Source of the DNA: Octopus vulgaris | Taxonomy: Eukaryota | Direction of reading: 5' to 3' | Length of the DNA stretch: 64,000 nt | Assembly (NCBI GenBank): GCA_951406725.2 | Contig: OX597821.1 | Location: forward strand, 23,994,001-24,058,000 | Made by a program: the position numbers and the translations under genes | Shown: positions 23,603 through 24,324 of the stretch, piece by piece | Position numbering within the stretch: the stretch's first letter is position 1 | Layout: every line of letters starts with the position of its first letter | The notes under the pieces: generated by a model | The model's database searches: none | The model's input: the letters and a program-made list of their open reading frames with translations, nothing else | Told to the model about the DNA's origin: nothing

Positions 23603-23836
23603 TGGCGAGCTGGCAGAATCGTTAGCACGCCGGGCGAAATGCGTAGCCGTATTTCGTCTGCCGCTACGTTGTGAGTTCAAATTCCGCCGAGGTCGACTTT
23701 GCCTTTCATCCTTTCGGGGTCGATTAAATAAGTACCATTTACGCACTGGGGTCGATATAATCGATTTAATCCGTTTGTCCGTCCTTGTTTGTCCTCTCTG
23801 TCTTTAGCCCCTTGTGGGTAGTAAAGAAATAGGTAT
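23603..23836 (+). mobile_element. SINE family C
   Basis: Matches copies at 21131, 25755 and 52145. Confidence 0.93.
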
Positions 23837-23901
23837 TGCTAGAAATAAGAGGCAGAACAACTCTTAGTCACGGGAATGACTGACAAGGGAGGCCGGGTGA
23901 G

Positions 23902-23949
23902 AGCCACTGATGAGTATCAATCAAATCCGAAATCATCGGTGATCTGGCT
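23902..23949 (+). ncRNA. Type I hammerhead ribozyme, intact core, at the apex of a ~200-nt rod
   Basis: AGCCA-CTGATGA-GTAT CAATCAA ATCC-GAAA-TCAT CG GTGA-TC-TGGCT. AUC triplet, cleavage predicted after 23944. Confidence 0.88.
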
Positions 23950-24324
23950 GTTGTAGGGAGCTGATCTCCCTTGTCAGTCTTTAGATAAGTGCTTCCCGTT
24001 ACTAAGAGTCGTTCCTACTTTTACTTTTAGCAGTCCCAGTGCTGACTAGCACCCTTAATCACGCTAGTGGCGTCTATACTTGTGCCTTTTGGTTGTAAAA
24101 ATTGCGAATAAGCCACCTTAATAATTTATATATAAATGTAGGAACTCGTTTGACCCGGTCTGCTTTAGATTCAAAACCGAATCTCGAAATTCTCCCCAAT
24201 CATACGGCCTATTGTCCTGTCAAAAGGGAACGCTGATTAATGTGTTTCCCGTTTGCGCCAGGACCTTGCTATACCATTGAAAGTTTAGATAAACAAAATT
24301 TGACCTACATTAATTTAGCCATTG

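Follow-up and report, generated by a model that had tools for sequence, protein, structure and literature searches.

Positions 23576-24130 of the window, by which we mean the entire 64-kb stretch of Octopus vulgaris DNA that was analyzed, constitute a single 555-bp insertion of a dispersed, hammerhead-bearing repeat family whose unit measures ~339 nt. The left part of the insertion is an inverted arm on the minus strand, whose outer piece (23576..23603) corresponds to unit positions 315->288, with 27 of its 28 nt identical to the unit (E 8e-7 in the 64-kb window); this piece terminates, on its outer side, at the inner of the family's 3' end sites (class B), and a (TA)/(GA) microsatellite adjoins it on the left. 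The arm is divided by a SINE-like repeat of very high copy number on the plus strand (23604..23834, the right end being uncertain by ~3 nt), which repeat took the place of 13 nt of the arm (unit 275-287), with no TSD seen. A further copy of the same repeat is located at 25756-25985 (90%), 184-bp pieces of it stand in tandem at 21178-21545, and its summed contig depth was 1e6-1e7; we take it to be a tRNA-derived SINE, and ARAGORN recognized no tRNA within 23604-23834. Beyond that repeat the inner piece of the arm (23835..23891, minus strand) continues the unit from 274 to 203 with a 12-nt deletion and 40 of 42 nt identical, and supplies both the 42-nt outer stem and the 14-bp perfect stem that are considered below. 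The forward copy (23893..24130, plus strand) comprises unit positions 121-368 of the ~339-nt unit and is accordingly 5'-truncated, with 9.7% substitutions relative to the majority sequence of its own subfamily and a deletion of ~11 nt after the hammerhead. Three features lie within it, all on the plus strand: a type I hammerhead (23901..23950) with a 5-bp stem I, a complete core, and a self-complementary stem III; the 3' strand of the basal helix of the native stem I extension (23966..23979; unit ~203-217), which strand pairs here with the inverted arm, since its native partner (unit 87-100) is absent from the window copy; and an optional ~50-nt "tail" (24079..24130) between the family's two fixed 3' end sites, found at only one end of this insertion and followed by TATA.

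Contigs from two public runs of one study, possibly that of the source sample (X1 and X2), cover 23838-24128 with 1 difference, and a contig from a run of another study with another organism label (X3) covers 23813-23948 with 4 differences. Since contigs from these three runs cross the junction between arm and hammerhead, that junction is real DNA and not an assembly error. Elsewhere in the window, open frames at 4057-4485, 35694-36113, 57400-57942, and 28945-30094, which we inspected by eye, presumably represent pieces of mariner-type transposase and Helitron-type helicase; in that inspection no host exon was recognized among the window's open frames.

The initial annotation had described a rod-like RNA of ~200 nt at 23835-24034, with an intact hammerhead at its apex, as the monomer of a retrozyme-like family. 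Most of the pairings on which that description was based we were able to confirm: the outer arms pair over 50 nt with 76% complementarity (8 mismatches in 43 aligned columns for 23835-23877), the 14-bp perfect stem is formed by 23878-23891 with 23966-23979, the competing GGGAG...CTCCC hairpin is present in the sequence, and no ORF forms part of the element. The proposed folding of 23830-24040 by an RNAfold-type calculation likewise bore out a strong structure, at -90.6 kcal/mol with a z of -7.88 and none of 200 shuffles as good. The boundaries of the element, for their part, had to be redrawn, in that the unit has ~339 nt, the forward copy reaches 24130, and the arm resumes at 23576-23603 past the SINE. 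What was first described is the middle of the 555-bp insertion, in which the left arm repeats, in reverse, the 3' part of the right arm. The outer rod is a DNA-level inverted duplicate of the 3' part of the unit, with ends that vary between copies; and in place of a monomer able to give a circle, the window contains a 5'-truncated, two-armed insertion diverged by ~10%. Nor is the element without a neighboring tail of a Penelope-like element (PLE), as had been stated, 24079-24130 being the family's optional end extension of ~50 nt.

The type I hammerhead itself was correctly recognized, with its complete core of CUGAUGA (23907-23913) and GAAA (23929-23932), a 5-bp stem I (23902-23906/23945-23949), a complete stem III at 23932-23943, and an AUC with the cut predicted after C23944, all on the plus strand; a strict type I scan of the 64-kb window returned a single hit, with the core at 23907, and the motif occurs on one strand only. 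The hammerhead can nevertheless not be called intact: stem II retains three of the five pairs of the family, and a change acquired by the copy enables a 9-bp pairing of the core with stem III, which competing helix was calculated at -11.2 versus -5.3 and -2.6 kcal/mol. Its location at the apex of the rod holds for the motif in the sequence and fails in the predicted fold, where the core pairs with stem III. The predicted probability of the hammerhead stems was ~1e-9 for the window copy versus 1e-3 for the family majority, both as monomers, and the stem II of the window copy is predicted to misfold in the dimer too. These models make it likely that self-cleavage of the window copy is low and that the copy is largely inactive. 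The suggested Rfam scan gave no hammerhead model at the locus (E<=5), and no hammerhead family at E<=1 in 4 loci holding copies with intact core and stems; the Rfam models therefore appear not to cover this hammerhead variant.

To the family as such we assigned 105 distinct places, in agreement with the earlier proposal of a dispersed, non-coding family of type I hammerhead repeats of the retrozyme kind. A DNA search of the genome (G000; 2.8 Gb and rich in microsatellites) with the locus gave 58 matches from the best 40 scored of 268 candidates, an exact search for the full core pattern gave 15 hits with 0 in the control, and five DNA or pattern searches yielded the 165 loci that reduced to those 105 places, among which two pairs that resemble local duplicates were retained. 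All family loci were drawn from top-scoring hits, so that the counts do not represent a random sample; the total copy number probably amounts to many hundreds, to judge from the 1425 candidates reached in a first look. Mapping of the loci gave a unit of 338-339 nt arranged head-to-tail, in which unit no ORF was found. The search for copies and arrays that had been recommended produced copies and partial tandems: 46 of the 105 places are longer than one unit and extend up to ~2.6 units, and long arrays were not seen in the 3-kb loci examined. The median substitution was 11.7% against the nearer of two subfamily majorities, the lowest value being 5.6%, which median is inflated by a third subfamily; an octopus calibration given in the accessible part of PMC13282606 equates a JC of 0.12 with ~33 million years, and if that rate applies the family would be roughly 30 million years old. 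Among the loci, L067, L072, L075, L143, L146, L188, and L203 belong to further subfamilies with an altered stem I, and L188 and L203 have a different self-complementary center of stem III. Four runs guessed to be RNA contained 22 records on 23838-24140, none of them at least 95% identical to the locus; these 22 records must therefore be other copies of the family. A short motif that continues from the end of the unit in two of the guessed-RNA runs had no exact match in the octopus genome.

As to the conservation of the core that was to be looked for in the copies, a part of them display it, the full core being present in 43 of the 99 copies that span the motif and the core together with the stems in 17 of the 99, with none of those 17 sharing a locus. 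In the 62 of the 99 hammerhead copies that were ungapped, on which covariation was calculated, 87.1% of the cells were paired and 40 double changes occurred, each of which values was beaten by none of 500 shuffles; measures counting pairs or pair types did not rise above the shuffles (320/500 and 75/500). Stem II changed from G-C to C-G in 15 of the 62 and stem III from U-A to C-G or G-C in 16 of the 62, and the covariation signal reflects mainly about two events between subfamilies, one in each of those stems. The ribozyme would, on these sequence data, have been under selection in the source lineages. We did not read the lower mismatch in core than in non-core columns (0.073 versus 0.138, and 0.058 versus 0.125) as a sign of selection on the genomic copies, because some loci had been picked by the core pattern and the non-core columns include differences between subfamilies. 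The 12 nt of stem III are self-complementary, and in co-folding each of the two subfamily majorities gives a double hammerhead whose core is open, a dimer mode of hammerheads with palindromic stem III that is described in the available portions of PMC4209133 and PMC7229834.

In the intact unit, stem I is predicted to be extended by a helix that joins unit 80-134 with 173-224 (42 and 37 pairs >0.5 in the two majorities). Folded as a circle, the majority sequences of the two subfamilies gave z values of -6.9 and -3.2, with a paired fraction of 0.59 that was not above the shuffles. According to these models, the family RNA is predicted to bear the hammerhead at the tip of a native rod, which prediction is a point in favor of the first reading: the intact family unit would possess a hammerhead-tipped stem of its own, different from the rod described at the locus, and the 14-bp stem of the window copy would mimic the base of that native stem.

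An inverted piece was present on the 5' side in 34 of the 105 places and on the 3' side in none, with no inverted arm in the remaining 71; the inner and outer ends of the arms, as well as the arm lengths, differ between copies. In 58 of the 105 places the 3' end is located at unit 359-376, in 26 at 305-335, and in 21 elsewhere; the first two groups define sites ~50 nt apart, and of 86 such ends 72 are followed within 30 nt by a microsatellite, versus a background of 21% in the flanking DNA. Among the 16 two-armed places where both ends could be classed, 10 (the window copy included) have ends of opposite class and 6 of the same class. No excess of TSDs was detected (8/71 versus 10.5% by chance, with 34 places flanked by simple repeats on both sides omitted). 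Forward copies starting at unit 170-176 were found in 2 of the 105 places, which frequency is about that of chance in a sample whose queries mostly favored ribozyme-spanning copies, and a cut-site footprint in the forward 5' ends was on that count discarded. A joining through base-pairing between the arm and the homologous unit 87-99 was also discarded, in that the forward copies following arms that stop at 203-220 do not start near 100.

In the accessible text of Craig and colleagues, the traits of PLE insertions include partial tandems, an inverted 5'-truncated copy at the 5' end, a one-ended tail of 30-40 bp, and a bias toward microsatellites (10.1101/2021.04.23.441226). The available sections of PMC11167929 state that the PLE protein cuts and extends both strands, that two internal start sites bound the tail, and that the RNA substrate is mostly uncut; these three properties explain why the family has two arms, two ends, and copies running across the cut site. 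By analogy with those elements, the layout of the present family—an inverted arm at the 5' side, two fixed 3' ends, and microsatellite flanks—is a PLE-like insertion footprint.

We therefore consider it quite likely that the locus is a decayed two-armed insertion of an old non-LTR retrozyme of ~339 nt that was probably copied by a PLE enzyme, with the outer rod being an inverted duplicate of its 3' part. Cleavage in the source RNAs would have proceeded by a double hammerhead, formed through the self-complementary stem III. A PLE protein would bind a multimeric or circular unit RNA and nick both strands of a TA-rich target, with reverse transcription beginning on both, at unit ~368 and ~315; one cDNA would pass through the uncut ribozyme to position 121, while the other would go no farther than position 203, where it met the stable stem beneath the ribozyme, whereupon repair would link the two cDNAs back to back. 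The SINE would have inserted in the arm at a later time, and both arms would since have drifted. Against this explanation must be counted the length of the tail, which, at ~50 nt, exceeds the 30-40 bp of published PLE tails.

With respect to the halting of the second cDNA, 14 of the 34 arms (that of the window copy, set by hand, included) terminate at unit 203-220, whether they started from the outer or the inner site, the p of this clustering being 7e-10 under a uniform spread and 0.003 under a best-window null in which arm lengths were resampled. The helix at unit 203-220 is the first that a reverse transcriptase entering from the 3' side would encounter. A tentative proposal, which we regard as possible and still rather doubtful, is that reverse transcription of the second arm stalls at the base of the hammerhead stem after starting at two fixed sites on both target strands, and that one locus to be described below (L063) names the PLE lineage responsible as Neptune-type. 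Were that proposal true, the family would constitute a DNA record of a PLE enzyme in the act of copying a retrozyme RNA, and the clustering of arm ends provides a concrete prediction for a PLE reverse transcriptase in vitro.

As to the possible source of such an enzyme, the octopus genome contains PLEs with RT and GIY-YIG domains, several with full frames of 781 aa, which PLEs we assume from the cysteine linker to be Neptune-type. An unlikely alternative to the explanation just given would make the unit the pseudo-LTR (pLTR) of an extinct autonomous PLE, and the insertions solo or truncated pLTRs. The hallmarks of the insertions are indeed all PLE hallmarks, and dispersed single hammerheads have been described, in the part of PMC4209133 that is accessible, as truncated PLEs. 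Reading upstream from the copies, however, leads into another unit—in the 46 of 105 places longer than one unit—and not into an ORF; as a terminal repeat of an autonomous PLE the unit had no match in 30 GIY-YIG loci and 13 longer stretches, and 57 PLE loci among the top candidates scored gave a single match of 37 nt to it. Similarity to PLE protein within 1.5 kb was detected in only 2 of the 105 loci (L063 and L146), and in L146 the PLE piece is situated past a microsatellite and looks independent. Also in favor of the alternative is L063 (1303-2210; G000:C4:21254450-21255360), where the terminal part of a PLE ORF, together with the beginning of its 3' UTR, is directly joined, on one strand, to unit 131-367, with an RT fragment and the 3' end of the same PLE family placed back to back on the other strand. 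Of the other 39 scored matches, however, none contains that junction, and the PLE family in question has a 3' end of its own that is unrelated to the unit. L063, though a single case, fits one insertion that used both retrozyme and PLE RNAs; its junction may instead have arisen by insertion of a retrozyme into an older PLE copy with a deletion.

Another notion, that the 200-nt rod is itself the functional RNA, a viroid-like monomer or circle tipped by the hammerhead, we hold to be very improbable in spite of the strong fold, the complete core, and the native stem and well-folding circle of the family unit. That rod is specific to the window copy and extends past the SINE; it bears one hammerhead and hence cannot release a unit-length RNA; and, as stated, the hammerhead stems are predicted to be nearly absent from its fold, with the 9-bp helix competing and stem II broken. 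Its arms, furthermore, are decaying independently of one another. In the comparison of the window arm with the forward copy, 13 of 85 positions differ without compensation and one change is shared, and in 30 other arms of at least 55 nt, 2747 positions included 512 changes that were private and 104 that were shared, the latter belonging mostly to copies of the second subfamily scored against the first majority. To judge by these changes, the window rod is evidently not being kept. A "viroid-like rod with a hammerhead tip" in genomes of this type can, then, be a by-product of insertion. Within 23835-24047, 11 of the 13 differences are on the forward side and 2 on the arm, through either chance or two different templates, which lopsidedness an origin from a single template does not predict. 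The weakest alternative, a MITE or foldback DNA transposon whose TIRs captured a hammerhead by chance, would explain the inverted arms about a center here and in the 34 of 105 places, and is yet so improbable as to be set aside, given that 71 of the 105 lack an arm, that the arms are confined to the 5' side with variable lengths and ends, that the hammerhead is part of the unit, and that the flanking TSDs named beforehand as the sign of such an element are not in excess and neither fixed TIRs nor a constant TSD exist across the 105 places.

The window element is accordingly neither a MITE nor a viroid. Hammerhead viroids and viroid-like satellite RNAs share with it the hammerhead core and a rod-like predicted fold, whereas the window element is a genomic repeat with a retrotransposon footprint, carries the type I motif on a single strand, and owes its long rod to an inversion of DNA. 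From its sequence characteristics, the family is a metazoan non-LTR retrozyme, old and with a sequence of its own, of a kind already known from many animals: the family, though not the window copy, has head-to-tail repeats of a non-coding unit in the ~150-450-nt range with one type I hammerhead. With the retrozymes of Cervera and de la Pena (2020, PMC7229834), above all the 350-390-bp mussel repeats, it shares, so far as the available text describes them, a non-coding unit of a few hundred nt, one type I hammerhead, tandems, a low GC, a predicted well-paired circle, and a genome that contains autonomous PLEs as well. It differs from them in its own sequence, its age, the limitation to partial tandems, and the 5' inverted arm with two fixed ends; the word "inverted" has 0 occurrences in the accessible text of PMC7229834.

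The study of Li, Clavereau, and Pollet (2026, 10.64898/2026.07.22.740005), in its accessible part, likewise proposes a dependence on PLE enzymes and reports many dispersed monomers, most of whose tested copies (8/9) did not cleave; two consecutive units with complete hammerheads are there called "active," and the window copy has one. That work concerns vertebrates and four non-mollusc invertebrates and is based on co-occurrence and pLTR homology, whereas the present family offers an insertion footprint, and no pLTR homology was found for it among the top candidates scored. Animal retrozymes have been proposed to borrow PLE enzymes on the grounds, so far, of co-occurrence and homology, to which the insertions described here add the evidence of a footprint. 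With the insertions of EN+ PLEs, as described in the available portions of 10.1101/2021.04.23.441226, PMC11167929, and PMC4209133, the family has in common the 5' truncation, the partial tandems, the inverted copy, the one-ended tail, the microsatellite targets, and a hammerhead with a palindromic stem III and a mode of action, predicted for the family, as a dimer; it differs from EN+ PLEs in the lack of an ORF and in a canonical hammerhead with a 4-bp stem III, as opposed to the minimal form usual in metazoan pLTRs. In the literature searched we found no report of hammerheads or retrozymes in cephalopods, though the family may already be listed in repeat libraries or supplements, and the word "ribozyme" is absent from the main text of the 2026 octopus repeat annotation. 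Taken by itself, the locus is ordinary and would serve poorly in experiments; its value resides in the family.

Other hammerhead-bearing repeats were observed in the same genome. A young PLE at L106-L109 (e.g., G000:C16:20834800-20844700) has an upstream ORF, a 781-aa RT-GIY-YIG frame, and 456-bp pLTRs that are 99.3% alike, which pLTR appears by eye to hold a minimal hammerhead with a U3-A8 variant of the core. Two short repeats with hammerheads and inverted arms are located in TA tracts (L107, 5350-5760, and L113, 6010-6370; minus strand). No alignment of the family with either of these, with the pLTR of the young PLE, or with the two arrays that follow rose above shuffles (z <=2.0). L271 (1765-4237) contains a young array of a 359-bp repeat, with 6.5 units at 99%, and L272 (1717-3086) a young array of a ~495-bp repeat, both with inverted arms and both unrelated in sequence to the family; these young arrays would make better experimental material than the family of the window.
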